NCBI GenBank assembly: GCA_031551455.1
Contig: JAVBNP010000006.1
Coordinates: forward strand, 6,749 to 70,748
Length of the DNA: 64,000 nt
Source of the DNA: Bacteroidales bacterium
GTDB lineage: Bacteria; Bacteroidota; Bacteroidia; Bacteroidales; UBA4181
Direction of reading: 5' to 3'
Shown here: positions 7,852 through 57,369 of the stretch, in pieces
How positions within the stretch are numbered: position 1 is the stretch's first letter
Layout: each line of letters opens with the position of its first letter
Translations under genes and position numbers: made by a program
Notes under the pieces: generated by a model
Seen by the model: only the letters and a program-made list of their open reading frames with translations
Database searches by the model: none
What the model was told of the DNA's origin: nothing

Positions 7852-7975
7852 TATTGGTTGTTTTTATGATTTTGTCGTATTAATAAATAACGATTAAAGG
7901 ATTAGTATTTATTATTGATGATGCATAAAACAGACTGTTTATTCCTAATTTAAAAGAACATCGATCGGGTATTCG

Positions 7976-8830: not shown

Positions 8831-8851
8831 TTTAATAGTGTTTTGATATGG

Positions 8852-19078: not shown

Positions 19079-19089
19079 GATTGTAAAAT

Positions 19090-32241: not shown

Positions 32242-33467
32242 AATCATTCAAGTTATTCCCGGTCCTAATGTTGTTTTTCTGTGCGATTGCTTACGGACAA
32301 CCGGGATCGTACGATCGAAAACGCGAATTGAAAAATGTGACGCCGGGCTGGCATTCGGTGATTTTACCAAACGACATTTTCGGAAAAACAGCATCCGATT
32401 TCTCGGATATTCGAATATTCGGAATCACTGCCGGAAACGACACGGTTGAAGTTCCTTACCTGGTTCGTTCCTCGGAAGGAGAAGTTATCGATAAAACGGT
32501 CGCATTTACCTTCATCAACACATCCCTAAACGAAATGGGATATTACTTTACGTTCGAAATGTCCGTACTGCAAGCGATTAATCGGATGGAACCGGAATTC
32601 GGGCAACGAAATTTCGATTGGAAAATAAAACTCGAAGGAAGTCACAACCAACGCGAGTGGTTTACCGTCGTCGATAATTACCGAATATTGTCGATCAGCA
32701 ACGATTTGACCGATTTCCGATTCACCGAAATAACGTTCCCGACATCCAAATATCGTTTTTTCCGCCTGCTCGTTGAAAGCAAAGAGAAGCCCGATCTATT
32801 GTCGACAAAGATTTCGCAAACGGAAACAACCGTCGGCGTTTTCATCGATTATCCGGTCGAAAAATTACACATCAACGAGAACAAAAAAGCCCGACAAACC
32901 GAAGCGGAAATCTATTTACATAATCCCGTTCTCGTGAGTCGAATCCGTATCAATATTAAAGATACGATCGATTATTATCGACCGGTAACCGTACAATATC
33001 TTGTTGACAGCGTGAAAACGGAAAAAGGTTGGTTCTACAATTATGCTTCGTTGGCATCGGGAATCGTCAGTTCGAACGGCAAAAACGAATTGACGTTCAC
33101 CCCGATCGTAGCGGAAAAATTAAAAATTCTGATTCTGAATCGTGACAATCAACCCGTAACGATTGAAAGTGTTGAAATAAAAGGATATGTTTACGAATTG
33201 ACGGCGCGATTTACCGAAGAAGGGAAATATTGGTTGGCGTACGGCAATACCCGCGCGCGAAAACCGCAATACGACATCGAAAAGTTTACGGATAAAATAC
33301 CCCGAGACATCACCGCATTGGAAACGGGCGACGAACAAATCGTACACCGTGCGGCAACGACCGACGTGAAACCTTTGTTTGAAAATAAAGCATGGTTGTG
33401 GGGTATCATGACGGTAATCATTTTGTTGCTCGGTTGGTTTACGTTGAAAATGATGAAAAAAATGTAA
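32238..33467 (+). CDS. Secreted, C-terminally anchored protein (DUF3999-like), translationally coupled to the DUF2339-like gene
   Basis: The ATGA start/stop overlap with the upstream gene is 4 nt. Signal peptide MKSFKLFPVLMLFFCAIAYG. Single C-terminal TM segment AWLWGIMTVIILLLGWFTL. Family name is tentative. Confidence 0.45.
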   Translation: MKSFKLFPVLMLFFCAIAYGQPGSYDRKRELKNVTPGWHSVILPNDIFGKTASDFSDIRIFGITAGNDTVEVPYLVRSSEGEVIDKTVAFTFINTSLNEMGYYFTFEMSVLQAINRMEPEFGQRNFDWKIKLEGSHNQREWFTVVDNYRILSISNDLTDFRFTEITFPTSKYRFFRLLVESKEKPDLLSTKISQTETTVGVFIDYPVEKLHINENKKARQTEAEIYLHNPVLVSRIRINIKDTIDYYRPVTVQYLVDSVKTEKGWFYNYASLASGIVSSNGKNELTFTPIVAEKLKILILNRDNQPVTIESVEIKGYVYELTARFTEEGKYWLAYGNTRARKPQYDIEKFTDKIPRDITALETGDEQIVHRAATTDVKPLFENKAWLWGIMTVIILLLGWFTLKMMKKM

Positions 33468-41118: not shown

Positions 41119-41126
41119 TATTTTTG
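41119..41126 (+). promoter_or_regulatory. Candidate -7 promoter box (TAnnTTTG) for the T9SS type B cargo operon
   Basis: TATTTTTG lies 36 nt upstream of the ATG at 41162. Confidence 0.35.
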
Positions 41127-41161: not shown

Positions 41162-43924
41162 ATGATAAACGTACTTCCGTTCGGAAAAAAAGTTGTCTTT
41201 ATCGTTGCTGCCCTCATGCTTGCATGGGGTCAAACGATTTCGTACGCCCAAACATATTTTACTCCATCCAATCCGACCTGTACGCCCGGAACCATTACGC
41301 CGGGTATTTCGAATAATGAATTCAAAATAAGCATCAATTACGGAAGAGCGATGCAAATAAGTCCGTCTCCTACCGTAACTTTTACAGGTTTTTCGGGAAC
41401 GGAAGAATCCGAAGTTTTTCCGAATGCCCCTCAATATTTTTGGTCCGACGGAAACAAAAAGCTCGATATCGTTTATGTTGTAGACCCGACCAAGCGAGTC
41501 AATCGATCCGGAATTACCGCAACCATAAACCCCATACAATCGAGTACGCCCGGATTATGGGCAAATCCCGCAGGGGTTACTTTTAATGTCGCACTCGGAC
41601 AATCTACGGGAACAATAAGCTTTTCTCCGCAAAATATTAATATCAGTTCCGGTAGTCCGTTTACCATGACGGTAGATTATTCCGATCCTATGAATAACGA
41701 AGCCCCCGACGTTACTTTTCAACCGGATCTTATTGCCTCAAATATCCTTCAAGGAATGATGTATAGTTGGCAAACCAACAAACAGTGTATTATTTCATAC
41801 ACTGTAACCGATGACGGCAATAATCACGGAAGCATCGGCGTAACCATAGCGGCAACGGATGCCGGCGATGTTCCCGCCGCTAATGCAACCGGCTCGTTTC
41901 TCGTCGATTTCAAAAAGCCGGCCTGTACGGTAACCGCCGATCCCTCAAGCATCGGGCCCAACACAACCGCACTTACCATCACGTTGGTGTATGATGAAGA
42001 AATGGACGTCTCTCCCCCTTCCATCGCTTTTTCGAACGGATTCAATCCGACCCCTGCCGCCGGGACAGGTTGGTTGGTCAATAAAACAACATATGTAGCC
42101 AAATACACCATTACGTCAAGCAATTTAAATACGCAATCGGTAATTACCGTTGCCAATGCCAAGGATCTTGCGGGAAATATTCAAATTCAAAACAGTGACG
42201 CCATATTGACCATTGATCAACGTAAACCGCAAGTGAAAAGGGTTACCATGATACCGTCGAGCATTAATCGCGGCATCAGCACGGCAACATTAGAAGTGGA
42301 ATTCGAAAATGCCGATGCCATGGCCACCGGAGATATACCAAGCATTATTTTTGCCCCCGATATGTCGACGGTATTGACCGGAGGACCGAGCAGTTGGAAC
42401 GGAATGGTTTATTCGCGAGAATATATTATTAATACGTCCAACAACACAACCATGCAACCCAATGTAGCGGTTACGGTAAGCGGAGCAAAAGATAATAAGG
42501 GTACCATCATTGATCCAACAACCAAAACAAATGTTTTCAGTGTGGACATGACCGGTGTTACTTGTCGTTCGGTTGTGTTTGACCCCGCAAAATTACAATT
42601 GGGCGTTGCATCCATGAAAATGACAATCACATACGAAGCACCCATGCAGGCCGTAAATCCGACCATTGTTTTTGTTGATGCTCAGAATAATCCCATAACC
42701 GACGCCAACAATAACCTGTTTAATGCACCGTCATTTGTTTGGACATCAACGACCGTATGCGAGGTAACTTACCCCTTAAAACCGAATCCGCAATTGCAAA
42801 TTCTTGATATACATGCGCGCATTACCGGAGCAAAACGGGCCTCCGACGGCAGTACGCAAGTTCCGTATCTGTCGACTTCGAGTTTCATGGCCGACTTGAA
42901 GGATTTGGGCGCCGTGGTAACGCCAAGCGCCGATCCCGTTAAATGTACCGATTCGGAACTTCAATTGCGTATTGCATTCAATCAAATAATGATCCCGACG
43001 GCCGAAAATATCAACATTGCCGATTTGCCCGATTACGATTATAAATATGATTTTTTACAATTCGAAAAAACCGAGTGGACGGACAACAGTACGGCAGTAG
43101 TTACTTATCGTGTGGAGGCCGATAAAAATTCCACGGGAAGCGTCAAAGTATGGGTTCACAATCTGCAAAATGCCGGAGGAAGAGCTTTCGATAAGGAATA
43201 CGGTAATGTATTTTCTGCCGAATCGAATCCGCCGACCATCGACAATGCCATTTACACATCGCCCTTGTGCCACAATGACGCAACCGGCAGTATCAATTTG
43301 ACCGTTTCGGGCGGAAATCCCGGATATACGTACGAATGGTCAAAAGACGGCGGAACGCCTGCTTTAGGCACACTACCGAATATTATCGATTTGGGTCCGG
43401 GACAATATATCGTTAAAGCATATGGTAGCGATCGTTGTTTTGCCTCTTCGTCGGGGGTACTCAATAATCCCGATGCCATTATTTTGACGACTGAGGTGGT
43501 TCAAAATGTCGTTCGAAAGGATGACGGTATCATTCAAATGACTGCGGAAGGCGGAACGCCCGATTACAGGTATTATGTTGACGGAACGCCGTATACCGAC
43601 GGTCGTGTCGAAAATTTGAAGGTCGGAACTTACGCGCTTGCGGTAGTGGACGCCAATAGTTGTACGGCCACCGATCAAGCCGTAATTGCAGACCATCGAA
43701 TTCCCACGGCGTTTACACCCAACGAAGACGGGTACAATGACATGTTCATGGAGGGAAATCGCGTAAAAATTTTCGATCGCAACGGAACCCTTTTACATGA
43801 AGGCGATAACGGATGGGACGGCAAATATAAAGGCCAAGTCATGCGTCCGGCCGTATATTTTTACATTGTCACGTTTCCCGACGGATCGATAAAGAAAGGA
43901 AGCGTACAAATATTCAAGAAATAA
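41162..43924 (+). CDS. Cell-surface protein: tandem Ig-like modules, two SprB-type repeats and a T9SS type B (gliding-motility-associated) C-terminal domain
   Basis: Signal peptide. About six modules of roughly 95-100 aa. CHNDATGSINLTVSGGNPGYTYEWS is a SprB repeat. The C-terminus IPTAFTPNEDGYNDMF ... GWDGKYKG ... VYFYIV ... GSVQIFKK (about 43700-43921) matches the type B CTD pattern. Confidence 0.8.
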   Translation: MINVLPFGKKVVFIVAALMLAWGQTISYAQTYFTPSNPTCTPGTITPGISNNEFKISINYGRAMQISPSPTVTFTGFSGTEESEVFPNAPQYFWSDGNKKLDIVYVVDPTKRVNRSGITATINPIQSSTPGLWANPAGVTFNVALGQSTGTISFSPQNINISSGSPFTMTVDYSDPMNNEAPDVTFQPDLIASNILQGMMYSWQTNKQCIISYTVTDDGNNHGSIGVTIAATDAGDVPAANATGSFLVDFKKPACTVTADPSSIGPNTTALTITLVYDEEMDVSPPSIAFSNGFNPTPAAGTGWLVNKTTYVAKYTITSSNLNTQSVITVANAKDLAGNIQIQNSDAILTIDQRKPQVKRVTMIPSSINRGISTATLEVEFENADAMATGDIPSIIFAPDMSTVLTGGPSSWNGMVYSREYIINTSNNTTMQPNVAVTVSGAKDNKGTIIDPTTKTNVFSVDMTGVTCRSVVFDPAKLQLGVASMKMTITYEAPMQAVNPTIVFVDAQNNPITDANNNLFNAPSFVWTSTTVCEVTYPLKPNPQLQILDIHARITGAKRASDGSTQVPYLSTSSFMADLKDLGAVVTPSADPVKCTDSELQLRIAFNQIMIPTAENINIADLPDYDYKYDFLQFEKTEWTDNSTAVVTYRVEADKNSTGSVKVWVHNLQNAGGRAFDKEYGNVFSAESNPPTIDNAIYTSPLCHNDATGSINLTVSGGNPGYTYEWSKDGGTPALGTLPNIIDLGPGQYIVKAYGSDRCFASSSGVLNNPDAIILTTEVVQNVVRKDDGIIQMTAEGGTPDYRYYVDGTPYTDGRVENLKVGTYALAVVDANSCTATDQAVIADHRIPTAFTPNEDGYNDMFMEGNRVKIFDRNGTLLHEGDNGWDGKYKGQVMRPAVYFYIVTFPDGSIKKGSVQIFKK

Positions 43925-43925
43925 A

Positions 43926-45638
43926 ATGCTCATGAGATATATTTCCCGCATCGTTATTTTTCTAATTGTCGGTCTCCTCGCCATCCCCGCATCGGGACAA
44001 AAAAAGGGTGAAACCGGTCAGGACTATTTCAAAAGACAGGAATATGCGCTTGCCGTAAAGGCATTTGAAAAAGAACTGAAAAAAGCTAAAAAGAAAAAAT
44101 CGGAACAAGCCCGAGTCGAAGCGTACATCGGGATGTCGTATTATTACATGAACAAACCGCGAGAGGCATCAACAAGGTTGAAAAAGGGAATCGACCTCGG
44201 GTACAAAAAGGCCGATGCTTATGCCGTTTACGGTCTTTCATTGCAAAAACAGGAAAAATACACGGAAGCGCTCGAAGCATTTAATCAATGCATCAAAACG
44301 GACAGCAAATATCCCAACATCAATCTGTACATCCAATCATGCAATTATGCGATGGAACATCCCGAGCCGAATACCCAAATCGTATTGCGTTCGTCGAAAG
44401 TAAATACGGACGGCAGCGAGTACGGTATCTCGCCGGGTCCCGAAGGGGAAATTTTCTTTTCGCGTGCTCCCGTTAAAGGGCGCATCGATCCGCGAACGGG
44501 ATTGGCGTATACCGACGTATATGTCTGCAAGCTTGACGGAAATGATCTTACGAAGCCCGAAAAGGAAAAAGCATTCATGAAAGCGTATTACAACACGGGC
44601 GTATTTTCGTATGATACACGTACCAAGAATATATACATGACCGTTTGCGACCCGAAAGGTAAATGCGGAATATATAAAAGCCCGTACAACCGAAACAAAT
44701 GGGGCAAACCCGAACCGGTTCTCATTAACGATAAATATGACATGGTGCATCCTGCCGTCACCAACGACGGCAATCGGCTCTATTTTTCGTCCAATGCACC
44801 GGGCGGATTCGGCAAAACCGATATTTGGTACGTTGATCGTGTCTCCGATGACAAATGGAGCGATCCGATTAATGCGGGAAATAAAATTAACACTCCCGGG
44901 CGTGAAGAATTTCCATTTGCCGGCGAAAGCGGATTCCTTTATTTTGCTTCCGACGGTCATCCGGGATTCGGAGGATTGGATATTTTTTGGTCAACGGCTG
45001 AAGGAAACGCAATCGGTACGCCGCAAAATCTTGGACGTCCTTTCAACAGCGGAGCAGATGATTTTAACTTGACCACTACGGGCGACAAGGGCCTGCTTAT
45101 CTCTTCGCGAAACATCAATACGGGCGATGATATTTACATTTTCGCGAAAGCGGATCTTACGAAAACCGAAATTGCGGAAGAGGAAGAAAAAGAAACCGAA
45201 TCTGAACCGATTCCGGAAACAAAGCCCGAGCCGGTTATCGTGGAACAACCCGAACCCGAGCCGATTGTCGTAGAACCCGTCAAACCGAGACCGGACAATT
45301 TCGCCGTCATTTATTTCGATTTCAATCGATTTGTCCCGCAACGCGAATACCGTCAACAATACGACGAAATTGCGGCACAAATGAAAGCATATCCCAATGC
45401 AACGTTTGAGATTGCAGGGTATGCCGATCCCCGAGGCGGAAGGGAATTTAACTCCGAACTTTCGGATAAACGTGCGGAATACATTGCAAAACGTTTGGTT
45501 GACAGAGGTGTTCCGAAAAGTAATTTGATCATCAAAGGTTACGGATTCACTGATCCCGCGGAACCGAATGCCTCTACGGAGGAAGAATTCCAAAAAAATC
45601 GACGGGTGGAAATACGTATTATTAAAACCACGAATTAA
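43926..45638 (+). CDS. PorE-like outer-membrane-associated protein: TPR, TolB/PD40-type beta-propeller repeats, E/P-rich linker, OmpA_C peptidoglycan-binding domain
   Basis: 1-nt gap after the cargo stop. TPR-like N-terminus, PD40-like repeats (RLYFSSNAPGGFGKTDIWY, FLYFASDGHPGFGGLDIF), the linker EEEEKETESEPIPETKPEPVIVEQPEPEPIVVEPVKP, and an OmpA_C core GYADPRGG..FNSELSDKRA ... NRRVEI. Confidence 0.75.
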   Translation: MLMRYISRIVIFLIVGLLAIPASGQKKGETGQDYFKRQEYALAVKAFEKELKKAKKKKSEQARVEAYIGMSYYYMNKPREASTRLKKGIDLGYKKADAYAVYGLSLQKQEKYTEALEAFNQCIKTDSKYPNINLYIQSCNYAMEHPEPNTQIVLRSSKVNTDGSEYGISPGPEGEIFFSRAPVKGRIDPRTGLAYTDVYVCKLDGNDLTKPEKEKAFMKAYYNTGVFSYDTRTKNIYMTVCDPKGKCGIYKSPYNRNKWGKPEPVLINDKYDMVHPAVTNDGNRLYFSSNAPGGFGKTDIWYVDRVSDDKWSDPINAGNKINTPGREEFPFAGESGFLYFASDGHPGFGGLDIFWSTAEGNAIGTPQNLGRPFNSGADDFNLTTTGDKGLLISSRNINTGDDIYIFAKADLTKTEIAEEEEKETESEPIPETKPEPVIVEQPEPEPIVVEPVKPRPDNFAVIYFDFNRFVPQREYRQQYDEIAAQMKAYPNATFEIAGYADPRGGREFNSELSDKRAEYIAKRLVDRGVPKSNLIIKGYGFTDPAEPNASTEEEFQKNRRVEIRIIKTTN

Positions 45639-45643
45639 TCAAC

Positions 45644-46582
45644 ATGAGGATCATCAAAAAATATCGAGTAATACGTCGAATTGTTGCAACGGTTGCGATA
45701 TGCACCATATCGGGTAACCTGTTTGCGCAAAGCGACATACTCCTGACGCAACAATGGCTGTCGCGTATCAACATGAATCCGGCAGCAACGGGAAATTCGG
45801 ACAACATTGACGTATTTGTGCTTTTGCGTCAACAATGGGAAGGATTCGAGAATGCTCCCGAAACGGGCGTTGTGAACGTACACAGCTATTTTGATCGTAT
45901 CCGATCGGGCCTCGGGCTGACGGCCATGTACGATAAAATCGGCGTGGGCAACAATACCGTTAATGCAAAATTGGCGTATGCCTTTCATTTCAACATCGGC
46001 GAAAGTTGGCTGATGTCGCTCGGATTGTCGGGCGGCGTCGAACAACGAGTCTTCGATCCGTCGAAACAATTTTTCCTCGACGAAAGCGATCCCGAAATTC
46101 CGCACGAAAAAATATCGCAAATATCTCCTGATGTCGACTTTGGTTTCGAACTTTCGTCGGAACGGTTTCTGTTTGGCGCATCGGCAACACATCTGTTGAA
46201 ACTTCCCGACCAAGCGACCACCAAACAAGATGCGCAACAATATTACGCATATGCGCGCTACAAACAACCGCTCGGTGAATCAGTAGCGCTTCTTGCAGGC
46301 GTTCGCGGAAGCAACTTCGATACGAAATATTTTCTGGAGGGTAACTTGACGGCAATGTTCTTCGATAAGTTTTGGATCGGAGGAGCTTTTCGTCCCGATA
46401 ATGCAGTAGCGGGGTTTGCCGGTTTGCAACTCGGTTTTTTCCGACTGGGTTATGCGTACGATTATTCGATCGGAAGCACCGCATCACTCGCCAAAAATTC
46501 GCACGAGATTGTTGTTTCGTTAAAAATCGGAAAACCCAAAAGAACCATCAACACCAAATCTCCGCGATTTATCGAAAATTAG
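45644..46582 (+). CDS. PorP/SprF-family T9SS outer-membrane protein (cognate partner of type B cargo)
   Basis: 5-nt gap from the upstream gene. LTQQWLSRINMNPAATG ... LLRQQWEGFENAP ... SHEIVVSLKIG matches the PorP/SprF (TIGR03519-type) pattern. Confidence 0.85.
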   Translation: MRIIKKYRVIRRIVATVAICTISGNLFAQSDILLTQQWLSRINMNPAATGNSDNIDVFVLLRQQWEGFENAPETGVVNVHSYFDRIRSGLGLTAMYDKIGVGNNTVNAKLAYAFHFNIGESWLMSLGLSGGVEQRVFDPSKQFFLDESDPEIPHEKISQISPDVDFGFELSSERFLFGASATHLLKLPDQATTKQDAQQYYAYARYKQPLGESVALLAGVRGSNFDTKYFLEGNLTAMFFDKFWIGGAFRPDNAVAGFAGLQLGFFRLGYAYDYSIGSTASLAKNSHEIVVSLKIGKPKRTINTKSPRFIEN

Positions 46583-46647
46583 CATCAAGCAACTTATTGA
46601 TCATCTGTTAAGTATATAAAAATCTAATCATTTAAACAAAAATCATC

Positions 46648-47163
46648 ATGCCTCCGGTACGTCCTCGTCCCCAAGCTCAAAAACCGAAATCCGAAAAAAA
46701 TCCGGCCGGTTCCGGCAACACCACCACGATTGTTGTTATCATCATTTTGTTACTGCTCATCGGTGGCGGTATTGCGGCTTATTTCCTTTATCCGCCTTTC
46801 CAAAACTTTTTCCGGAAAACTCCGAAAGAAACAATCGTCACGGAACCTGCTCCCAAGGATACAGTGGTGATCGAAGAAGCTCCTCCCATTGAAGAATTGA
46901 AACCCCAAAAACAAGAATCGTCAAATTCCGCACCCAAAGGATTTTACATCATTGTAGGCAGCTATCGCAACCAAAGCTATGCGAACAAAATGGTCAAAAA
47001 TTGCAGCAAGGATATTGAACTTGAAGTAATTTATTTCGAAGAAATCGGAATGTACAGAGTTTCGGCAGGTCATTACGACAATATCCACAAAGCTTATAAT
47101 GATGCTTACAGTATCAAGGATTTGGACGGTTGCGCCAACGCATGGGTATTGGAAATCCTGTAA
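46648..47163 (+). CDS. Bitopic SPOR-domain (septal peptidoglycan-binding) protein
   Basis: Basic, Pro-rich N-terminus and one TM helix (TTIVVIIILLLLIGGGIAAYFLY). C-terminal FYIIVGSYRNQSYANKMV ... YRVSAGHYDNIHKAYNDAYSIKD is SPOR-like. Confidence 0.7.
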   Translation: MPPVRPRPQAQKPKSEKNPAGSGNTTTIVVIIILLLLIGGGIAAYFLYPPFQNFFRKTPKETIVTEPAPKDTVVIEEAPPIEELKPQKQESSNSAPKGFYIIVGSYRNQSYANKMVKNCSKDIELEVIYFEEIGMYRVSAGHYDNIHKAYNDAYSIKDLDGCANAWVLEIL

Positions 47164-47260
47164 AACATCGACATACAGGTATTGTATCATCACTTAACAA
47201 AGCAATACATCCAATCTAATTAATGCGATTATTGAAAATCGCATAACAAGAATACGATAA

Positions 47261-47313
47261 AACCGAATTCCGCGAGAACAAAAATCGACAAGTTGTTCCC
47301 GCAGAATTCGGTT
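47261..47313 (+). terminator. Long imperfect hairpin after the SPOR gene
   Basis: aaccgaattccgcgagaac-(15 nt)-gttcccgcagaattcggtt followed by tgttt. Confidence 0.45.
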
Positions 47314-47560
47314 TGTTTAAAAATTTATCTATTTACGACATCAATTTTATCGAGACTGATATATGTCCGTACACCGGAAAACATGGATAACATCGGACAA
47401 CCGGACGATTGTTGCAATATTCTGCTTTTAAACAGGCAATTAATTGAAACCTATTTGTTAATAATTTCGTATACATTAGTCAGATACATGATCATGATTC
47501 ATCGAATTTTAAATCTGCATGGTTCCACACCGAATTATTACAAATAAAAAATTACCCGAT

Positions 47561-50500
47561 ATGCTTCGATACATAAAGGTATTGATTCTCCCGTACTTTT
47601 TATTCATTGCACAACAAACGGCAGCGCAACAACCTCCGGTCGCGTTGAGCCACACGATCACGCTCACGGGATTTAACGGATATATAAATAAAATCACTGT
47701 TGTTTATACCATCAAAAACAATGGTTCGGATAAATTGGAAAACATTGTTCTGACGGACAATTACACCCAAATGTTCGGTACCGAAGCAACAGCAAGTACT
47801 TTCGCCAAAACATTGACCACCGTTCCCGCGGGCAACGGAATTACGTTAAATCCCGCTTATCAAGGAGGATCGGATAATTTATTGCAAACGGGGTCGTTTT
47901 TGGACTCCGCAGATGAAGCCAAAATTACCGTAACCTTTGAGGTGGAACTTACCTCAAAATACAAAGGAGATCAATTTAACAGCAACGCCCGATTGGCATG
48001 CGACGGATTTACGTTTCCCGTACTTTCCGTTGCCGCATTGAACCTCTGCCAAATCACCATCGAAAAAGTAAACGGACTTTCGTTGTCGCAAACGGGAACC
48101 GCCATCGTCAGCACGGCCGAAAAAGATCAGGAAACGCTTGTTTTCGTCATCACCCGCAAAGGTATGACCACCAAAGAAACGAGAGTCAGTTACAGTTTCA
48201 CGCCTTCGGCTTCGCGTCCGGCAGCCAATCGAGCAACCATGCCCGGCGATATCAGTTGGATCAGTTCGCAAACGGGCACCATTATCTTTCCCAAAGACAA
48301 CACAAATCCTCAAACCGTCAGCATCAAAATTGTAGACGATCTGATTTACGAATTGCTCGAATATTTCGATTTAACACTCACCCCCGTTGCCGCTTACCCG
48401 GAAGCATCCATTTTACAACGAAAGGTTGAAACGGAAATCCTCAGCGATGACGCCAAACCGGTGGTAACCGTTGAACAAGCGGGACCGAAAACGATTATTG
48501 AAGGAAACGGCGGTGCAGCTGTGTCTACGTTGGTTCCGATCAGAGTTTCCATCAGTAATGCTTCTTATTTGCCCGTTACGGTCAGTTGGTCCATCAGTGC
48601 GGTCGGAACCAATAATTTCAATGCCCCCACGTCCGGCACGATAACGTTTGCGGCAAACACGACCGATTTACAACAAACATTCAATATACTCGTCAGTCAA
48701 GACGAATTGGAAGAAAGCGATTATCCGTTTAAAGTAAACTTCACGGCAACCAATGCGGAAACGGTCATTAACAATGCTCCCCTGTCATATACCATCAAAG
48801 ATGACGATATGCGACGGATCATTTGGAATACCCAAAGCCCGGGGTTGTATTTCAAAAAAATGGATGCCGGCAGCGAAATCGTGGATACCATGTACATCAA
48901 TTTTCTGGTAACCGATGCAACATTGAAAAACCCGAAAGTACATATCATCCTGCCCGCGGGCGTTACGCCGATAACAACCTATTTGACCAATATTCATGAC
49001 GAAAGTACCGTAAAAGGCGTAAAATTCGCTTCATGGACGGCAAGTACACGTACGTTGATCTATGATTTGGTTGGAAACGGTGATCTGAAAGCGGGAGACA
49101 TGGTCCATTTCAAGATCATTCGTAAAGCCGAATGTACTGCAACGCTGGGAGCGGTAAAAGACATCGTGAAAGTGGAAGCGACCAACGTTGCCGCCCAACC
49201 TTGGGTTAAAGACGGTCTCGTAACCAACAAACAGGAATGGGAAGTACCGCATACCATTAACAAAGGCAAGCTTAGCCTAACGATAAAAGCCGGCGATTTA
49301 TTGATGTACGAAAACGAAGGCGATTTGAGGGATCAAAAGCTGGAAGTAATGAACAGCGGACAAGGGTCCATGAAAAATTGCACCATCCGAATCGCATTCC
49401 CGAAGGAAATCGTCGAAATGACCGCATTGACCATCGGAACGACAGTCATCGGGACATTACCGACGCGCCAATTGTCGGGAACCGAAAGCTTCTACGACAT
49501 CATCCTCTCGGGAACACTTTTGGGCAGCGATCAATTGTTGACCGCGGGCGAAAAAATCAACATCACGTACACCTTAAAAGGGGGGCAGAAAAAGAACGTC
49601 GGTTGCGGATTGAAATACGAAAAAATATCCGCATGGTGGGGTTGCAGCACGTCGGCCAAACCGGACGCAACGGTTCCCGCCACCATCGAATTATATCGCC
49701 CCGAAGGTGTTCCGCAATTGACTCGTACGCTGATTCCTCCGACGGGAGAATTGAACGAGTCGGGCGTCAACATTTACAAAATGGAACTCAAGAACGAGGG
49801 ACAAAGCGATGCTTACTACACCAACATACCGATAACCATTTATTCGTACAAAACGGATAAATTGGGATCGGGAGCAAGCGACGTCGTCGTTACGTTAAGC
49901 GCGGGCACACCCACGTATACGCTTGCGGCTCGCACCGACAGAGGCGTTACGGTAACCAATCTGATTATTCCCGCGGGAGAAACCGCAACCATAGAGTATA
50001 AAATAACGCGTAACGTATTGGACAGATATTCGGGTTCGCCGAATGCCAATGTCCTCAACGAAGATTATTTCCTGCATATTCGATCGGAAAAAATCACTTA
50101 TTCCGACGAATGTAACGAAAATCCGGGAAGCATTGACGTCGGCTATTTTACGCAGAATGCGGGCAGCGTTAACGTCAGCCACTTGCCAATCATCAAACCG
50201 ACGCATTTCGACATGCTTTTTGCCAAAAAGTTCGGAACTTGGTCTTTCGAATTCGGAACCGCCAATACCGTATTCCCCATGGCCGAAACGAAAGGCTTTT
50301 TCGGTCCGAACGATAACGGGGCGGGAAAAAAAGTGGTGATCAATTTTGATTTAAGCACCAACAAATTTCTTCCCCAAGAAATAAAAATTACCGCCGCCGA
50401 TGGAACATCGTACAACCAAACCAACGGAATTTTGGTCAGTTGGACGGCAAGCGGCGCCGTTCCGAAAAATCAAACCAACCTGCCCGTAAGCAATGTTAAC

Positions 50501-53500
50501 GATGCGGCGCCCGACGGAAAATATACCGTCACCATCCCGTTTAATATCGCAAAATTGTGTTCGGCCGGAGCACGTTTCGATTTTAAAGTAAAGGGAGACG
50601 ACTGTTCGGCCGGCAACGAATTCTCCGTTAAATATACCGTCGATTTCGTCACAAAGGCAGGGAAGGTACATAAGCTGTACCAAGTTACGGGCGTCACAGC
50701 CATTAAGTGCGCCAACGAAGCGGGAGCAAACCTTAAAGATTGGGATGACCCGAACAGCATCTATATTCAAATGAATCGTCTCAGCCTCGGCATGAGAGAC
50801 AATAACAACAACGGATTGGAAAATGCCGGCGACGCCATGTCGACCAATACAAGCGGAATGCGGCTGGATCGATTCTACCACGGTGATACGTTGGAATTTG
50901 TATACAAAATCAGAACCAAAAACGACCCGAATTCAAACGTAACCGCATCCGACGGTATTTCCACTCCGTGGGAATATCTCTACGTTACCCTCGACAAGAT
51001 GAGTCAAAAACGATTTACGCATCTCGAATCGAGCTATAATGTTTACATCGGCCCCGATCAAGCCGTCAATCCGGGACAACCTCGACCGAACGGCAGCGGC
51101 CCGGCAACGCCGCAATACATTCCTTCAACCGACTCGGTTTACTTCAGGCTGAATCCGGCAAGCAAATTCAACGAAATGGACTCGGTAGTGTTCCGAACTC
51201 GCTGGTTGGTGCAAACCATGACCATGAACACCGGTGCAAACGGCACAAATTCAACAAGAATAGAAGAAAACCACATGGTAAAACATTGGGTATACTGTTG
51301 GCATGCCGTAAGAAACACAAACGATATTTTCAGACCTTTTACAAATTCCGATTTTGCCGTTCCGACAGATTACGGGTTGATGCAAAAATACGAACGGGGA
51401 TCTTCCTCCATTCAATTATATTCGTTATCGCACGGCACCAACGGAATATTCGGCGGCGGCGGTTCGGGATATATGTTCGACAAATATTATATCTCTCAAA
51501 ATACCGAATACGATTATTTTGAAGTATTCGGATTGCACGCCACCAACGACGCCGTTCCGATATTTTTCCCGTACGAATTGCGGAAACCGCATTACATTGA
51601 TAGTATCTCTTTCATGATTCCCTATGGATATCGCTTGACGCAAAACGTACAGCTTTTCGGTAACTCGGGTTTGGCGCGCATGCAATATGCGACAGCCGGC
51701 ACGCCGTACAACGGCTTTGTATCCGTTATAGCGCCCAACCCGCAAATGCAGGGTTTCAAACAAAAGTTAATCTTCAATAATTGGCATAAAAACCCGTATA
51801 CACAACACACGCCGGGAACGGATTATCAGATACCCGACGAATCTTGGGGATCGCGTCCTTTCATGCGGCTCGAACTGACACCCAAAGCGCCGTATGGAGA
51901 ATATACCGTATACATCAAAACAAATTACGGAAGCACCAAGGATTATCCCTCGAATTTAGGAATTCCCAAGTTGGAGTCGAAAAATTCAATCGGATTTAAA
52001 ATTCGCAATACCGCACCCACCTTCTTGCTTTCATGTGTTCCCAACACCGTGCAAGCCCGAGGCGATACGGTGCAATGGACCATCAGAATCGAAAACAAAA
52101 GTTCCGACAAAATCAACGGAACGGCTAAAAGCGGATACTTGTACATGGGCAATATGAACGACGTATACGGCGCCGGCAGTTTCGATTTGGATATAGAAGC
52201 CTGCGAATTACTGAACGAAACCGGAAACCGGTTCAATCCGAACAAAAAAGGAGAAGGGTTCGGAAATCGGTGGATCTATGTGGGCGATCTTCCCGCAGCC
52301 ACCACTAAAATATACCGATTCACGGCCGTTATCAAAAACTGGGCAGGTCATTGCGACAAGGACAGTTTGTTCCTCACTCCTTGGTTTGATTGCGAAAACG
52401 ACGGAAGCGTTCCGAATTTGAGTAATTCTCCCGCGGGAGCCTGTGACACCACCTACGACAGACATGTGGGACGTTCCGTAAATATATACATGGAACACCA
52501 ACCGGCTCATTTGGCGGGTGAAGTAACCGCATTGTATCAAACGCCGACGGATCCTTCCGTTCCCGGAAGCGCCAAATTCGGTTCGGACGAAATACAAGCC
52601 GGAACCCCTTTCCCCGTGGAAATCAAACTTTCGAGTACCGATATTATTTCCGTGAAAAACGCTCAAATAGAGATGTTATTACCCGCAGGTATGACCTATG
52701 TTTCGGGGACGGCATATTATGAAACGGGGGGCAGTAACCAACCGTTTGTCAAAGACGGAAGCAATAAAGATGCTCTGGATCGAAACGTTGACGGCAGCGG
52801 AACACCGTTTACGCTTATCATGACGGATATTACGGGTCAACCGCTCATTTTGGAAGGTCTTACGCAAAATGACACGACCAAACGTGATATTTATTTGAGA
52901 TTCAAGTTGACCACCGATTGCAGTTTTAATGCCGACAGCGCCATCATTAAGGCACACATCGACGGACAACATCTTTGCGACGCATCGGCGATGTACCACA
53001 ATAACCCCGATACCATACAGGGTTTGCAAATATACCTTGAAGGGTATCGCTATTACATCCTCACCGATGCAATATACGGGCCTCAAGGTTACACCTTTGC
53101 ACTATGCGAGGACGGTAAAAAGAAAAAAACGCTTCGGGGACAATTTACGCGCCAAGGCAGAGCGTTGCAAAACGATTATTTCGAACTCAAAATGCCCGGT
53201 TATTTCTCGCTCGATCCCGAACCCTCACCCGGAAAATCCGTCATCAAATATTTCTCGTGGAATCCGGACGATCCGATGGCCATACCTCCGTTGGTCATCG
53301 ATTCGGTGAGCGAAGATCCGATTATTATCACCAAATCGGCCGATGCCGACACGATCATTTATCGTTGGAAATTACCGGTAGTCTATTCCGCGAAAACCAC
53401 TCAAAATTTGTTGGTGGAATACAATATTCCAGTCATTTTAAATGACTTGGCTCCAAATATAAAACTCGACAATCCATTTGTTCTCAACATTGTGGCCGAC

Positions 53501-56383
53501 AAAACCAATCAATGCAGCGGCAAAGGCGCTTTGCTGGCCACCGATACGCTTATGGCACAAGTGTACATCAATGAAGTGGGATTGGCCAAAAGAGTATCCA
53601 AAGTATTAAATGCCGATCAATATTTTACCGTTACGTATACCTATACGCTTGTCAATTTGAGCAATGTTCCCGTATATAACGTAACGCTTACCGATAATCT
53701 TGCTTCGATGTTCGGCGGGATGATCGATTTCAAGGCGGGTTCATTCTCCATTGACACCACCAACGCATCCGGATTGAAAGCAAACGACGGCTATGCCGGA
53801 AACGGAGCCGTGATATATGCGGGAACCATGGCTGCGGGCGAAACAAAAACGGTAGTGCTAACGTTCGATGCGCGACCCAACATGACCTATGACGGACGTA
53901 CTTTCGAAAACAATGCAAAGTTGACCGCCAGCAATACCGAAAATTGCGAAACGTTCGATATATCGACCGATTCGCAAAACGATGATCCCGGAACGCCGCC
54001 CGCAGCATTTGCCGATCCGACACCCATTAGTTTTAACAGCCTACGATTCAAAGATATCGGCCCGATTACGGTACAGGAAAATGTCGGTACCATGACGCTT
54101 ACCATCGAGCGTGTGGGTGATTTGTCGGCATACGATTTTTATTTTCTGCTTGCCGACAAATCAGATCTCGGCGGATATTTGCCCATAAGCTTCTACAATG
54201 AAGCCACGGTAGGCAGTTCGCCCGACGGTTGCACCGATGCTTGGCGCGATCCCGAAAAAGAAAAACTTACTTTCCCTGCGGGAAAATCCGAAATGACCGT
54301 TCAAGTGCACATTGTCGACGACAATATCGACGAAACGCCGCTTATCGATAATATTTCGGAAGCATTCGCGGCCATTATCACGCATGTATCCATGCCCGAC
54401 GATGTTTCGTTCATCAACGACACATTGATCGTGGTTATCGAAGACAACGACATGCTTCCCACTTTGTCGATTTGGGCCATGGCAGACTCAATTCGCGAAC
54501 GAACAATTATTTTGGGTCCGGGACACAATTACGGTACCAACGATATGAAATTCGAGCTCCGCTTGAGTAACCCCACCATCAATTACGCAACCATCAAAGC
54601 GAATTGGCAAACCGAAAACGGTTCGGGATTGGCTGTGGGAGGTTCCGCGGGCATACAAGGCGTCGATTTCGATTATTACGAACAACTTGCCGCAGCAATT
54701 CCGGCTTTCACGCTGGGATGCATCGCAACCGATACCATTCAAACCATTACCGTTAAAGTGGTTGCCGACAGCATACCCGAAACGGCCAAAAAGGTAAAAG
54801 TATCCTTATCGGGCGTGCAAGGCATTATTCCGGGAACCCTCGAAGCTTATTCCACCATTGTCGACGACGATATCAAGATAGATACGATCAAATTGAAAAA
54901 TTTGATTTGCAAAGGCGACGGAACGGGTGAAATAACCGTTAAAGCCCGCGGAGGCGAAACATACGCATCCGGAGGAAAATACCACTACCGATGGACGGGA
55001 CCGGGAGGATTCAATGCTTATGAATTCACTTCCGGAAACAATGCGATACAAAACCTCCAAGCGGGATTTTATGCGGTAACCGTAACCGATGTATGGAGCA
55101 CTCCCACGGATTCGAGCTTTATCATTGAAGTAAAAGAACCGACGCTTCCCCTTGCCGTTCATGTCGATAGCAAACAAGACGTCACTTGCAACGGAGGTAA
55201 TGACGGATTGATCAACACCACCGTTTCGGGAGGTTGGAATGTTGTATTGCCTTACGATATCAAGTGGACCAAAAAAGATGATGTCGGATATTCTTCAACT
55301 TCCGACGACATTAATACGCTGACGGCCGGATTGTACCGGATTACGGTGAAAGACAGTGTGTCATGTGTGGTAAAAGACAGCGTTGAAATCAAGGAACCGC
55401 TTCCGCTCGGCATCGACAATACCGTTGTTCGGGATATCACATGCAAAGGAAGTTCGGACGGAAGCATCGAAATAACCATTGTCGGAGGAAATCCTTTCCC
55501 GACACCCAATGATCCGTACTTAATCTTTTGGACCGGTCCGAGCATCAATGCCGGTAATAACAACAAAACAAGCATTTCCGGATTGTTGCCGGGCACATAC
55601 ACCGTGGTTATAAGCGATAACGGTTGCGGTACGATCACCGATTTCTTCACGATAAAAGAACCCGCCACGCTGATGACGGCTTCCGTCGAAAGTATTACCG
55701 ATGTTGCTTGTAAAGGCGATGCTTCCGGTATAGCCGTCATAAAAGCTGAAGGCGGATGGGGAAAATACACCTATGCATGGAGTGACGGTATAACAACGGA
55801 CAATAATACCCGCAACGATTTGAAAGCGGGAGATTACAGTGTCCTTGTAACCGACAGCGCGGGATGTACCAAAAATCTTTCACCCGTTACCATCGGAGAG
55901 CCTGCCGAAAGAATGAAAGTAACGCTCACCGCAACCGACGAAACATATCAAAACGGTAACGATGGTACCATTACGGTTGATGTTACGGGCGGAGTTCCCG
56001 CATATATTTATTCGTGGGCCGATGCACCGACGCTAAACACCGCTTTCCGTAATTTCCTCGAAGCGGGAACCTATACGGTTACCGTTACCGATCAACAAAA
56101 TTGCGTCATGAGCGAAAGCGCCGTCATTAACGAGCCAAACACAACGGATAATTTGCCGAACGTATTTACCCCGGACGGAGACGGCTTTAACGATAAGTTA
56201 CTGGAATATCATCACATTAAGGTTTTCGATCGTTGGGGTTTGCTTCTCTATGATGGTACCGATGGTTGGGATGGTCGTTACAAAGGCAAAATGATGCCCT
56301 CGGGAACTTATTTTTATGTCTTAATTGACGATACCACGGGTAAAGAATATAAGAGTTCGGTATTATTGCAAATTCTCAAATAA
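47561..56383 (+). CDS. Giant (about 2940 aa) surface adhesin-like protein: DUF11-like and Calx-beta modules at both ends of a roughly 1580-aa unassigned core, about five SprB repeats and a T9SS type B C-terminal domain
   Basis: Start set at MLRYIKVLILPYFLFIAQQTAAQ (47561). DUF11-like repeats (VVYTIKNNGSDKLENIVLTDN; YTYTLVNLSNVPVYNVTLTDN). Calx-beta-like motifs (VSIKIVDDLIYELLEYF, VQVHIVDDNIDETP, ITVKVVADSIPETAKKV). SprB repeats (CNGGNDGLINTTVSGG, CKGSSDGSIEITIVGGNP, CKGDASGIAVIKAEGGWGKYTYAWSDG). C-terminal CTD NVFTPDGDGFNDKL ... GWDGRYKG ... TYFYVL ... LLQILK (about 56152-56380). Confidence 0.85.
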   Translation: MLRYIKVLILPYFLFIAQQTAAQQPPVALSHTITLTGFNGYINKITVVYTIKNNGSDKLENIVLTDNYTQMFGTEATASTFAKTLTTVPAGNGITLNPAYQGGSDNLLQTGSFLDSADEAKITVTFEVELTSKYKGDQFNSNARLACDGFTFPVLSVAALNLCQITIEKVNGLSLSQTGTAIVSTAEKDQETLVFVITRKGMTTKETRVSYSFTPSASRPAANRATMPGDISWISSQTGTIIFPKDNTNPQTVSIKIVDDLIYELLEYFDLTLTPVAAYPEASILQRKVETEILSDDAKPVVTVEQAGPKTIIEGNGGAAVSTLVPIRVSISNASYLPVTVSWSISAVGTNNFNAPTSGTITFAANTTDLQQTFNILVSQDELEESDYPFKVNFTATNAETVINNAPLSYTIKDDDMRRIIWNTQSPGLYFKKMDAGSEIVDTMYINFLVTDATLKNPKVHIILPAGVTPITTYLTNIHDESTVKGVKFASWTASTRTLIYDLVGNGDLKAGDMVHFKIIRKAECTATLGAVKDIVKVEATNVAAQPWVKDGLVTNKQEWEVPHTINKGKLSLTIKAGDLLMYENEGDLRDQKLEVMNSGQGSMKNCTIRIAFPKEIVEMTALTIGTTVIGTLPTRQLSGTESFYDIILSGTLLGSDQLLTAGEKINITYTLKGGQKKNVGCGLKYEKISAWWGCSTSAKPDATVPATIELYRPEGVPQLTRTLIPPTGELNESGVNIYKMELKNEGQSDAYYTNIPITIYSYKTDKLGSGASDVVVTLSAGTPTYTLAARTDRGVTVTNLIIPAGETATIEYKITRNVLDRYSGSPNANVLNEDYFLHIRSEKITYSDECNENPGSIDVGYFTQNAGSVNVSHLPIIKPTHFDMLFAKKFGTWSFEFGTANTVFPMAETKGFFGPNDNGAGKKVVINFDLSTNKFLPQEIKITAADGTSYNQTNGILVSWTASGAVPKNQTNLPVSNVNDAAPDGKYTVTIPFNIAKLCSAGARFDFKVKGDDCSAGNEFSVKYTVDFVTKAGKVHKLYQVTGVTAIKCANEAGANLKDWDDPNSIYIQMNRLSLGMRDNNNNGLENAGDAMSTNTSGMRLDRFYHGDTLEFVYKIRTKNDPNSNVTASDGISTPWEYLYVTLDKMSQKRFTHLESSYNVYIGPDQAVNPGQPRPNGSGPATPQYIPSTDSVYFRLNPASKFNEMDSVVFRTRWLVQTMTMNTGANGTNSTRIEENHMVKHWVYCWHAVRNTNDIFRPFTNSDFAVPTDYGLMQKYERGSSSIQLYSLSHGTNGIFGGGGSGYMFDKYYISQNTEYDYFEVFGLHATNDAVPIFFPYELRKPHYIDSISFMIPYGYRLTQNVQLFGNSGLARMQYATAGTPYNGFVSVIAPNPQMQGFKQKLIFNNWHKNPYTQHTPGTDYQIPDESWGSRPFMRLELTPKAPYGEYTVYIKTNYGSTKDYPSNLGIPKLESKNSIGFKIRNTAPTFLLSCVPNTVQARGDTVQWTIRIENKSSDKINGTAKSGYLYMGNMNDVYGAGSFDLDIEACELLNETGNRFNPNKKGEGFGNRWIYVGDLPAATTKIYRFTAVIKNWAGHCDKDSLFLTPWFDCENDGSVPNLSNSPAGACDTTYDRHVGRSVNIYMEHQPAHLAGEVTALYQTPTDPSVPGSAKFGSDEIQAGTPFPVEIKLSSTDIISVKNAQIEMLLPAGMTYVSGTAYYETGGSNQPFVKDGSNKDALDRNVDGSGTPFTLIMTDITGQPLILEGLTQNDTTKRDIYLRFKLTTDCSFNADSAIIKAHIDGQHLCDASAMYHNNPDTIQGLQIYLEGYRYYILTDAIYGPQGYTFALCEDGKKKKTLRGQFTRQGRALQNDYFELKMPGYFSLDPEPSPGKSVIKYFSWNPDDPMAIPPLVIDSVSEDPIIITKSADADTIIYRWKLPVVYSAKTTQNLLVEYNIPVILNDLAPNIKLDNPFVLNIVADKTNQCSGKGALLATDTLMAQVYINEVGLAKRVSKVLNADQYFTVTYTYTLVNLSNVPVYNVTLTDNLASMFGGMIDFKAGSFSIDTTNASGLKANDGYAGNGAVIYAGTMAAGETKTVVLTFDARPNMTYDGRTFENNAKLTASNTENCETFDISTDSQNDDPGTPPAAFADPTPISFNSLRFKDIGPITVQENVGTMTLTIERVGDLSAYDFYFLLADKSDLGGYLPISFYNEATVGSSPDGCTDAWRDPEKEKLTFPAGKSEMTVQVHIVDDNIDETPLIDNISEAFAAIITHVSMPDDVSFINDTLIVVIEDNDMLPTLSIWAMADSIRERTIILGPGHNYGTNDMKFELRLSNPTINYATIKANWQTENGSGLAVGGSAGIQGVDFDYYEQLAAAIPAFTLGCIATDTIQTITVKVVADSIPETAKKVKVSLSGVQGIIPGTLEAYSTIVDDDIKIDTIKLKNLICKGDGTGEITVKARGGETYASGGKYHYRWTGPGGFNAYEFTSGNNAIQNLQAGFYAVTVTDVWSTPTDSSFIIEVKEPTLPLAVHVDSKQDVTCNGGNDGLINTTVSGGWNVVLPYDIKWTKKDDVGYSSTSDDINTLTAGLYRITVKDSVSCVVKDSVEIKEPLPLGIDNTVVRDITCKGSSDGSIEITIVGGNPFPTPNDPYLIFWTGPSINAGNNNKTSISGLLPGTYTVVISDNGCGTITDFFTIKEPATLMTASVESITDVACKGDASGIAVIKAEGGWGKYTYAWSDGITTDNNTRNDLKAGDYSVLVTDSAGCTKNLSPVTIGEPAERMKVTLTATDETYQNGNDGTITVDVTGGVPAYIYSWADAPTLNTAFRNFLEAGTYTVTVTDQQNCVMSESAVINEPNTTDNLPNVFTPDGDGFNDKLLEYHHIKVFDRWGLLLYDGTDGWDGRYKGKMMPSGTYFYVLIDDTTGKEYKSSVLLQILK

Positions 56384-56400
56384 GCCAAAAGAATCATACA

Positions 56401-57369
56401 ATGATCACGCAATTATCACATGGCGGTTATACGGGTTTTGCAAAAAAGATATTGTATTTCTTCTTTGTTTGCACGATATGGATGTCTCCAAAGATATCCG
56501 CCCAAACGGATGTACAATTAAGCCAACAGATGTTCAGCCGAATCAACTATAATCCCGCCGCAACGGGTCTTTCCGAAGACATTCATTTATATTTGTTGGC
56601 CCGACAACAATGGGTCGGATTCAAACTCGCTCCGCAAACCATTGTGTTCAATGCACATACATTTGTTCCTTGGACGCGCTCCGGTTGGGGTTTTTCATTA
56701 ATCGGCGACATGCTCGGATATGAAAAAAGCATTAATCCGAAACTCCGATACGCTTTCCATATCCCGTTTATTTCAACCCGATCTTCTTTATCGTTGGGTA
56801 TCGGCGCCGGCATCATGTACAAAACCATCGACGGCAATAAATTGGTGTACGAAAATCCCGCCGATCCCAATCGAATCTATGGCGTAAAATCCGACACAAA
56901 ACCCGATTTCGACTTCGGAGCGGAATATAATTCGAAACATATCAGTGCGGGAGCATCGGTAACGCATTTGGGCAATAAAATCAACAACACGCCCAATACC
57001 GAAAGTTCACCGCATTTCTACGGATATGCTCGCGGAATGTTCGACATCACCAAACAATGGCAAATTACCCCCGCTTTTTCTTGGCACAACAGTAAAACGG
57101 TTAATCAATTGGAAGTAAATGCTTTGTTGTTTTACAAAAAAACGTTTTGGGTAGGCGCTTCTTACCGGGTTAACGAATCGGTTGTGGGATTGGCGGGAGT
57201 TTATCCGTCACCTCAACTTATGTTGGGCTACTCGTACGATTACAATGCGGGCAAATTGGCGCCCTACTCGCGCGGTTCTCATGAAATCATGCTTTCGTGG
57301 CGCATCCCGCAACCGCAAAAAACCCGCAAGGCAACCCGTATGCGCGAATGTACGCATGAATGGTGGTAA
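56401..57369 (+). CDS. PorP/SprF-family T9SS outer-membrane protein (second copy)
   Basis: 17-nt gap after the giant gene. LSQQMFSRINYNPAATG ... LARQQWVGFKLAP ... SHEIMLSWRI parallels the first copy. Confidence 0.85.
   Translation: MITQLSHGGYTGFAKKILYFFFVCTIWMSPKISAQTDVQLSQQMFSRINYNPAATGLSEDIHLYLLARQQWVGFKLAPQTIVFNAHTFVPWTRSGWGFSLIGDMLGYEKSINPKLRYAFHIPFISTRSSLSLGIGAGIMYKTIDGNKLVYENPADPNRIYGVKSDTKPDFDFGAEYNSKHISAGASVTHLGNKINNTPNTESSPHFYGYARGMFDITKQWQITPAFSWHNSKTVNQLEVNALLFYKKTFWVGASYRVNESVVGLAGVYPSPQLMLGYSYDYNAGKLAPYSRGSHEIMLSWRIPQPQKTRKATRMRECTHEWW

Follow-up and report, generated by a model that had tools for sequence, protein, structure and literature searches.

We analysed a 64,000-nucleotide stretch of DNA from an uncultured Bacteroidales bacterium (GenBank assembly GCA_031551455.1, contig JAVBNP010000006.1), referred to here as the window, which contains a giant gene for a predicted cargo of a type IX secretion system (T9SS) with a C-terminal domain (CTD) of type B, followed by a gene for a PorP/SprF-like outer-membrane protein. 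Counted from its first ATG, the open reading frame (ORF) of the giant gene spans 47519-56383 on the forward strand and is open over 8.8 kb. The ATG at 47561 corresponds to the start of an identical NCBI protein (P0001) of 2,940 amino acids (aa) that is encoded on a 71.9-kb contig. The ORF list and this protein confirm the single 8.8-kb frame of about 2940 aa that had been described from the letters alone in an earlier reading of the stretch (the original prediction). The features of the gene pair are as follows.

47561-56383, +: giant type B CTD cargo gene, 2,940 aa plus stop (ORF list, translation, matching NCBI protein)
47561-47632, +: predicted signal peptide, residues 1-24, Sec, SPI type, no lipobox Cys (read from the sequence by inspection)
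47633-48055, +: DUF11-like beta-sandwich, N copy, residues 25-165 (hhalign and BLAST to the C copy; weak DUF7507 match)
48056-48454, +: Calx-beta N1, residues 166-298 (PF03160; Solitalea alignment; NCX CBD structures; hhalign)
48455-48814, +: Calx-beta N2, residues 299-418, ending in IKDDD (Solitalea alignment; structure 3gin at profile positions 323-416; hhalign)
48815-53572, +: family-specific core, residues 419-2004 (no Pfam or PDB match; four homologues)
53573-54040, +: DUF11 repeat, C copy, residues 2005-2160 (TIGR01451; PF01345; BLAST to P0093)
54041-54460, +: Calx-beta C1, residues 2161-2300, ending in IEDND (PF03160, 22.5 bits; NCX CBD structures; hhalign)
54461-54880, +: Calx-beta C2, residues 2301-2440, ending in IVDDD (hhalign to N2; BLAST; collinear alignment)
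54881-56146, +: five SprB repeats, residues 2441-2862 (PF13573; motif starts; internal BLAST ladder)
56147-56380, +: type B T9SS CTD, residues 2863-2940 (PF13585; TIGR04131)
56401-57369, +: cognate PorP/SprF-like outer-membrane barrel, 322 aa (PF11751; TIGR03519)

The N-terminus of the giant protein, MLRYIKVLILPYFLFIAQQTAAQQ, is signal-peptide-like on inspection, as the original prediction had it, with a basic n-region, a hydrophobic core and the sequence TAA-QQ, and MLRYIKVLILPYFLFIAQQTAA/QQ is plausible as a Sec signal peptide; the N-termini of the homologues described below are comparable. At the other end, residues 2865-2936 of 2940 match the type B CTD models PF13585 (44.2 bits, cut-off 27) and TIGR04131 (43.2 bits, cut-off 35), and the region immediately before them contains five stretches that match the SprB repeat family PF13573 (102 bits) and whose motifs begin at residues 2450, 2543, 2628, 2717 and 2796. 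The PorP/SprF gene begins after a gap of 17 nucleotides and its product matches TIGR03519 along nearly the entire model (218.6 bits, cut-off 90.55, profile positions 2-291 of 292) as well as PF11751 (203.7 bits), which bears out the claim that a second PorP/SprF gene follows the cargo. In five of five members of the giant-protein family this gene lies directly 3' of the giant gene.

Between these ends, profile searches verified the DUF11 and Calx-beta assignments that had been made by eye, as they did those of the SprB repeats and the CTD, and placed all module borders within a few residues of the earlier positions. Residues 184-278 score 35 bits against the Calx-beta model PF03160 (cut-off 27), and pairwise BLAST aligned two Calx-beta units, which make up residues 186-416, with a Calx-beta protein of Solitalea longa. 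A profile built from the protein family matches solved NCX Calx-beta structures on both sides of the core (N side, E 2.8e-10; C side, E 1.1e-5 at profile positions 2232-2368), and acidic end motifs are kept in the Calx-beta units (IKDDD at 412, IEDND at 2293, IVDDD at 2433). The C-terminal DUF11 copy (~2018-2131) is recognised by TIGR01451 (26.2 bits, cut-off 24) and reaches 18.9-24.4 bits with PF01345, slightly below the cut-off of 24.6; residues 2005-2158 also resemble the DUF11 repeats of the Calx-beta/DUF11 protein P0093 (pairwise BLAST, E 2e-13). The N-side DUF11 module is recognised solely through its similarity to the C-side copy, its own profile match being a weak one to DUF7507.

No direct or tandem repeats were found inside the giant gene, which makes mis-assembly driven by repeats unlikely. 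A scan for sigma-70 promoters and terminators stayed at or below the expectation from shuffled sequence, and the Bacteroidota -7 motif TAnnTTTG was not enriched in the window and was not found on the forward strand just upstream of the giant gene.

The flanking blocks and the core they enclose

The same kinds of module stand on both sides of the core, and the original prediction had called this arrangement mirrored and suggested an internal duplication. Protein self-BLAST showed the diagonal alone until the query was masked and windowed; it then paired residues 61-145 with 2040-2121 (31% identity, E 5e-5) and 362-418 with 2384-2439. A Smith-Waterman alignment of residues 25-425 with 1996-2445 joins the N block (45-419) to the C block (2024-2440) collinearly through all three domains, with 27% identity over 360 columns and a score of 158 compared with 44 +/- 7 for 300 shuffles (z = 16). 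Comparison of family profiles with hhalign joined DUF11-N with DUF11-C (98.3% probability, E 1.6e-14), Calx-N1 with Calx-C1 (98.2%) and Calx-N2 with Calx-C2 (95.9%). The crossed pairs reached 27% (Calx-N1 with Calx-C2) and 5.6% (Calx-N2 with Calx-C1), and within the N block Calx-N2 paired with Calx-N1 at 94.7%; in this comparison all four Calx-beta units are related to one another. Since every domain pairs with its positional partner, DUF11-Calx-Calx was copied as one unit and in the same orientation. The order of domains is identical on both sides, so that the flanks form a direct repeat and the description as mirrored does not hold, while the suggested duplication is upheld. The flanks are thus an ancient direct duplication of one three-domain block that brackets the core. 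Both copies are present in all full-length homologues, hence the duplication predates the family, and it has left no trace at the DNA level.

The core itself comprises 1,586 residues (419-2004) and is all-beta by composition and by predicted secondary structure. The original prediction had left this long region unassigned and our searches agree with it: against Pfam (E <= 1) and NCBIfam the core gave no match except for a faint one to DUF11, and the family profile gave none against the sequences of the PDB. Antibody V domains, which came up in the PDB profile search with the core, were rejected as noise (E of 0.3 or more). A regular repeat array was rejected as well, given that no pair of windows reaches 50% hhalign probability. 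Compared with the DUF11-N block, core residues 591-677 and 742-826 reached about 20% at most. When family members were scanned singly, weak matches to CARDB appeared in three of the five (best E 1.2e-4) and weak matches to DUF11 likewise in three of the five. These results point weakly to a core that consists in part of CARDB/DUF11-like sandwiches.

AlphaFold2 models of the core were built on five-sequence alignments and are of low confidence. For residues 1186-2006, the mean predicted local distance difference test score (pLDDT) is 50 and the model is all-beta from ~1485 onward; for residues 1010-1490 the mean pLDDT is 45, with one sandwich at ~1104-1250 that reaches 70-79. A Foldseek search with the 1186-2006 model returned strings of Ig-like domains (integrin legs, PrgB, the C-domains of antigen I/II) at TM-scores of 0.1-0.24, and we take these matches as a faint hint of beta-sandwiches in tandem. 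The motifs that are best conserved within the core (YELRQPYY, IPYGY, DQIPDEGW and TPRAP) cluster at ~1335-1445, within a conserved, aromatic-rich segment at ~1287-1490 (about nucleotides 51419-52030).

A small family with a gradient of identity

A word-indexed search with the whole giant protein returned SprB-repeat proteins alone, covering 6-18% of the query; with residues 25-2440 it gave just two partial domain matches and no SprB-repeat protein, and for the five-sequence core alignment it yielded no hit whatever, although the database contains the query itself. This marks a limit of its candidate selection, which long multi-sequence queries seem to overwhelm. Pattern scans of genome contigs (with the core) and of metagenome contigs (with the core alignment) recovered no relative, the patterns being either too specific or too loose. 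An exact-sequence look-up of the window's own protein gave no contig, and its cluster counts one member. By contrast, exhaustive phmmer, in which residues 421-1620 were compared with 1.84 billion cluster representatives, recovered four true homologues, and an empty word-indexed search is therefore no evidence of absence. The homologues, P0096 (1,846 aa), P0097 (2,981 aa), P0098 (3,047 aa) and P0099 (3,878 aa), are 31-35% identical over the whole 1,200-residue query, and the three full-length ones (P0097, P0098 and P0099) have the same order of parts. Two of these three were recovered from two assemblies each, and relatives occur in the runs SRR23967709 and SRR14710916 and in JGI 3300042648 and 3300042615. 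All four homologues come from closely related uncultured Bacteroidales. The source itself is placed in this group by mnmG, which lies beside the locus and is 88%, 83%, 83%, 82% and 77% identical to that of five EPI_MAG genomes and ~65% identical to that of Paludibacteraceae. P0098 is encoded in EPI_MAG_00218 and P0096 in EPI_MAG_00075.

Identity to P0097, P0098 and P0099 differs markedly along the protein. It is lowest in the N block (26-39%) and the core (25-36%), higher in the C block (36-49%) and the SprB repeats (45-63%), and highest in the CTD (67-91%). The rise toward the CTD fits a fibre that is anchored at its C-terminus and has a fast-evolving outer part: the end that fits the secretion and anchoring proteins is held constant, while the far end drifts and in P0099 also grows. 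P0099 carries, at residues 1 to ~640 (8966 to ~10900 of its contig, L085) and ahead of the first DUF11 module, additional short repeats rich in G, T, N and A, which are of the GT..N.G...N type and look beta-helix-like. This additional region suggests that the distal end of the fibre accretes new modules.

The shortest homologue, P0096, belongs to a split gene. In EPI_MAG_00075 (JAVBNI010000069.1, 8001-16738 of locus L086; also seen in L087) the orthologue is divided into ORFs of 1,846 and 1,071 aa that overlap at 13523-13541, which indicates a frameshift and is present both in the metagenome-assembled genome at NCBI and in the Logan assembly of SRR23967709. The split may reflect a genuine pseudogene, programmed frameshifting or a sequencing error that both assemblies share.

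The neighbouring four-gene module and other loci in the window

Upstream of the giant gene, the window contains a second type B cargo with its own PorP/SprF gene, and this forms part of a four-gene set that ends in a hairpin.

41162-43924, +: 920-aa type B CTD cargo with SprB repeat, first gene of the set (Pfam/NCBIfam)
43926-45638, +: PorE-like TPR/PD40/OmpA_C protein, 570 aa, second gene (Pfam OmpA, PD40, TPR)
45644-46582, +: PorP/SprF, 312 aa, third gene (Pfam/NCBIfam)
46648-47163, +: SPOR-domain protein, 171 aa, fourth gene (PF05036, 27.5 bits)
47260-47318, +: terminator-like hairpin followed by UUUGUUU, between the SPOR and the giant gene (RNA fold)

Of the four-domain build of PorE (TPR/WD40/CRD/OmpA_C), the product of the second gene shows TPR, PD40 and OmpA_C. 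It is PorE-like in its architecture and fails the equivalog call for PorE, as it stays below the cut-offs of both NF052230 (T9SS_PorE; 255.8 against 600) and NF053607 (the CHU_0125 family; 276 against 620). In the operon at 41162-47163, all three kinds of component of the PorE-PorP-type B cargo complex of Porphyromonas gingivalis are encoded, and so is a second protein that binds peptidoglycan. At 41119-41126, 36 nucleotides before the ATG of the 920-aa cargo gene, lies a TAnnTTTG motif. The hairpin at 47260-47318 has a folding energy of -25.6 kcal/mol (z = -5.7; none of 200 shuffles was as stable); it marks the end of the upstream operon and separates it from the giant gene.

Comparative genomics supports the view that the window holds two independent cargo/PorP pairs, as had been proposed. 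Beside mnmG, the four-gene set (cargo, PorE-like, PorP, SPOR) is conserved in the relatives: the first gene has syntenic orthologues at loci L001, L003-L005, L081, L085 and L086, and the SPOR gene is kept in position at L001-L004, L081, L085 and L086. The PorPs linked to giant genes are 61-81% identical to each other and 33-37% identical to the upstream PorPs, which in turn are 60-80% identical among themselves. The CTDs of the two cargos split into the same two classes as the PorPs, and such a joint split is the pattern expected for cognate pairs of CTD and shuttle. The two pairs also differ in their company, in that the PorP gene of the upstream cargo has a porE-like neighbour and that of the giant gene has none. 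In EPI_MAG_00218 the giant gene and its PorP lie elsewhere, with a LacI regulator and an S41 peptidase as neighbours, and the mnmG locus retains the four-gene set only, which implies that the two modules are separable. A further observation concerns the JGI 3300042615 contig (L085), where a transposase-like PDDEXK_2 gene and three small ORFs sit at 7059-8948, exactly between the SPOR and the giant gene. This insertion identifies the junction of the two modules as a point of rearrangement.

Three other loci of the window are recorded here. At 17717-19102 on the reverse strand, the 461-aa product of one gene combines a PKD-like domain with a T9SS sorting domain of type A (PF18962, 42 bits), which indicates that the organism uses both CTD classes. 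At 29842-33467, genes for a DUF2339 protein (a predicted membrane protein of 799 aa) and a DUF3999 protein (409 aa) adjoin with an overlap of 4 nucleotides and form an uncharacterised gene pair. Two genes similar to the uroporphyrinogen decarboxylase family (URO-D), at 5376-6539 and 10193-11206 on the reverse strand, belong to a cluster with a major facilitator superfamily transporter, a xylose-isomerase-like TIM barrel, an Fe-alcohol dehydrogenase, a GFO/IDH/MocA oxidoreductase and a GntR-type regulator. Judged by these genes, this is more likely a locus of catabolic or methyltransferase type than one for haem synthesis.

A putative PorP-anchored fibrillar adhesin

Starting from the domain content, gene pairing, synteny, conservation, duplication and identity gradient observed here, we favour the reading that the giant protein is a T9SS-exported, PorP-anchored fibrillar adhesin, and assign it a probability of about 0.75. 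By analogy with other species, the protein would be exported by Sec by means of its cleavable N-terminal signal peptide; the T9SS would then recognise the type B CTD and move the protein across the outer membrane, aided by the dedicated PorP/SprF-like barrel encoded downstream. On the surface it would remain with its CTD uncleaved and non-covalently bound to the PorP-like protein. A membrane-proximal stalk would consist of the five SprB repeats together with the DUF11-Calx-Calx block on the C-terminal side, and from it the fast-evolving core and the N-terminal DUF11-Calx-Calx block would project outward and presumably bind ligands. The result would be a long all-beta fibre with its binding function in the N-terminal two thirds, in which, to judge from homology, Ca2+ binding by the four Calx-beta modules probably adds stiffness. 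The adhesin function, the calcium dependence and the SprB-like mobility proposed in the original prediction are inferences, as are the secretion route, the anchorage and the orientation.

Work on other bacteria provides the basis for this model. PG1035 of P. gingivalis, a protein with a type B CTD, is surface-exposed, retains its CTD and is found in a complex with PorP and PorE, and SprB of Flavobacterium johnsoniae was found bound to SprF (PMC9143113). Type B substrates furthermore need cognate PorP/SprF shuttles, which are often encoded nearby (PMC12618676).

Several points weigh against the favoured reading. Expression, secretion and adhesion in the source organism are predictions from the sequence, and Ca2+ binding is deduced solely from Calx-beta homology and the retained acidic motifs. 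None of the core T9SS genes (sprA/sov, porKLMN) lies within the 64-kb window, and the presence of the machinery is a presumption based on the phylum and on the two classes of cargo (type A and type B) that the window contains. The core models are of low confidence throughout (mean pLDDT of 50 and 45), and modelling of residues 1287-1490 gave nothing usable, which leaves about 200 conserved residues without a predicted fold and makes a non-structural activity of the core conceivable. Finally, the split orthologue in EPI_MAG_00075 indicates that the gene can be lost or mis-assembled.

The known systems resemble the locus in different respects. SprB/SprF of F. johnsoniae share with it a giant protein, SprB repeats next to a type B CTD and a PorP/SprF gene directly downstream with no porE-like gene. 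SprB measures about 6,500 aa, and the protein described here is less than half that size; similarity to SprB-repeat proteins covers at most 18% of it, the remaining 83% (DUF11, Calx-beta and core) is unrelated, and Pfam and NCBIfam gave no sign of an sprC/sprD context. PG1035 of P. gingivalis, which also belongs to the Bacteroidales, is likewise a type B CTD protein; it stays on the surface by binding a PorP barrel and keeps its CTD uncleaved (PMC9143113). With its cargo, PorE-like and PorP genes side by side, the upstream operon matches the three component types of PG1035-PorP-PorE. However, PG1035 is small (~50 kDa on blots) and binds the secretion machine's general PorP, whereas each cargo in the window has a dedicated PorP paralogue and the PorP of the giant protein has no PorE-like partner gene. 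The shuttle pairs of F. johnsoniae, such as Fjoh_3952/Fjoh_3951, show linkage of cargo and shuttle and specificity of the pair (PMC12618676), for which the two co-conserved CTD/PorP orthogroups are the counterpart here; in our case specificity would follow from conservation and synteny, and the bodies of the cargos are unrelated. Calx-beta/DUF11 proteins such as C3K47_16215 of S. longa (P0094) and P0093 have tandem Calx-beta modules (27-31% identity) and DUF11 repeats (28-33%) in common with the giant protein, and P0094 also carries a CHU_C tail as the giant protein does. These are long homogeneous repeat arrays, in contrast to the two DUF11-Calx-Calx copies around a non-repetitive core that they lack.

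The alternative that survives best is a SprB-like mobile adhesin, which would be bound to its PorP/SprF on a gliding track and drive gliding or movement over a host surface; we consider it unlikely. It draws on the presence of SprB repeats and a type B CTD in a giant protein and on the difference between the two PorP genes, as Gorasia et al. postulate that anchorage to PorP only characterises mobile cargos (SprB/SprF) and anchorage to PorP-PorE non-mobile ones (PMC9143113). This PorE rule is a postulate and not a demonstrated one, and the similarity to SprB-repeat proteins is limited to the small part of the protein formed by the repeats and the CTD. Neither Pfam nor NCBIfam revealed sprC/sprD-like genes upstream, where the SPOR gene and then the terminator precede the giant gene, and the window contains no gliding genes. 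Many Bacteroidales, moreover, are not known to glide. A bolder proposal, to which we give similarly little credence, goes beyond both readings: the core, chiefly ~1287-1490, would be a new fold with a ligand-binding or catalytic role, perhaps in attachment to host or partner cells, framed by Ca2+-stiffened DUF11-Calx-Calx copies in a family confined to one clade; in addition, PorP-only anchorage next to a PorE-tethered cargo could make the giant protein a mobile adhesin in a lineage not known to glide.

It is distinctly less probable that the protein is released or shed and that its core acts as the payload, be it an enzyme, a lectin-like glycan binder or a toxin, with the flanking blocks as spacers. 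In its favour, the most conserved stretch of the core (~1335-1445) has neither a fold prediction nor a domain match, and in F. johnsoniae the pair of CTD and shuttle specifies where putative type B adhesins are localised after secretion (PMC12618676). Yet no catalytic family or PDB entry was matched even with the family profile, the all-beta composition and secondary structure resemble adhesin stalks, and the core, at ~30% identity, is no better conserved than the N block, whereas of an enzymatic payload one would expect better conservation than in its spacer domains. Despite a metagenome-assembled source, a record of the exact protein on a single contig and the split orthologue, we regard it as extremely improbable that the giant ORF is an artefact of assembly or belongs to a decaying gene with no functional product, because the frame is open and free of DNA-level repeats, collinear homologues of 2,981, 3,047 and 3,878 aa are full-length and uninterrupted in independent assemblies, and the pattern of conservation reflects purifying selection on the CTD.

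Type B CTD cargos with a dedicated PorP/SprF are already established, and the giant protein and its PorP add a further example of this known arrangement. What the locus, together with its relatives, contributes is a PorE-linked pair beside a PorE-free one, each with its own CTD/PorP orthogroup, which makes it a natural case for studying CTD-shuttle specificity and for asking whether, as postulated, static and mobile cargos differ by their linkage to PorE. The giant protein belongs to a very rare, lineage-restricted family, with five members among ~15 billion predicted proteins and a core without a match to anything known. Should the host lineage live on surfaces or on other cells, the core would be a candidate attachment determinant.

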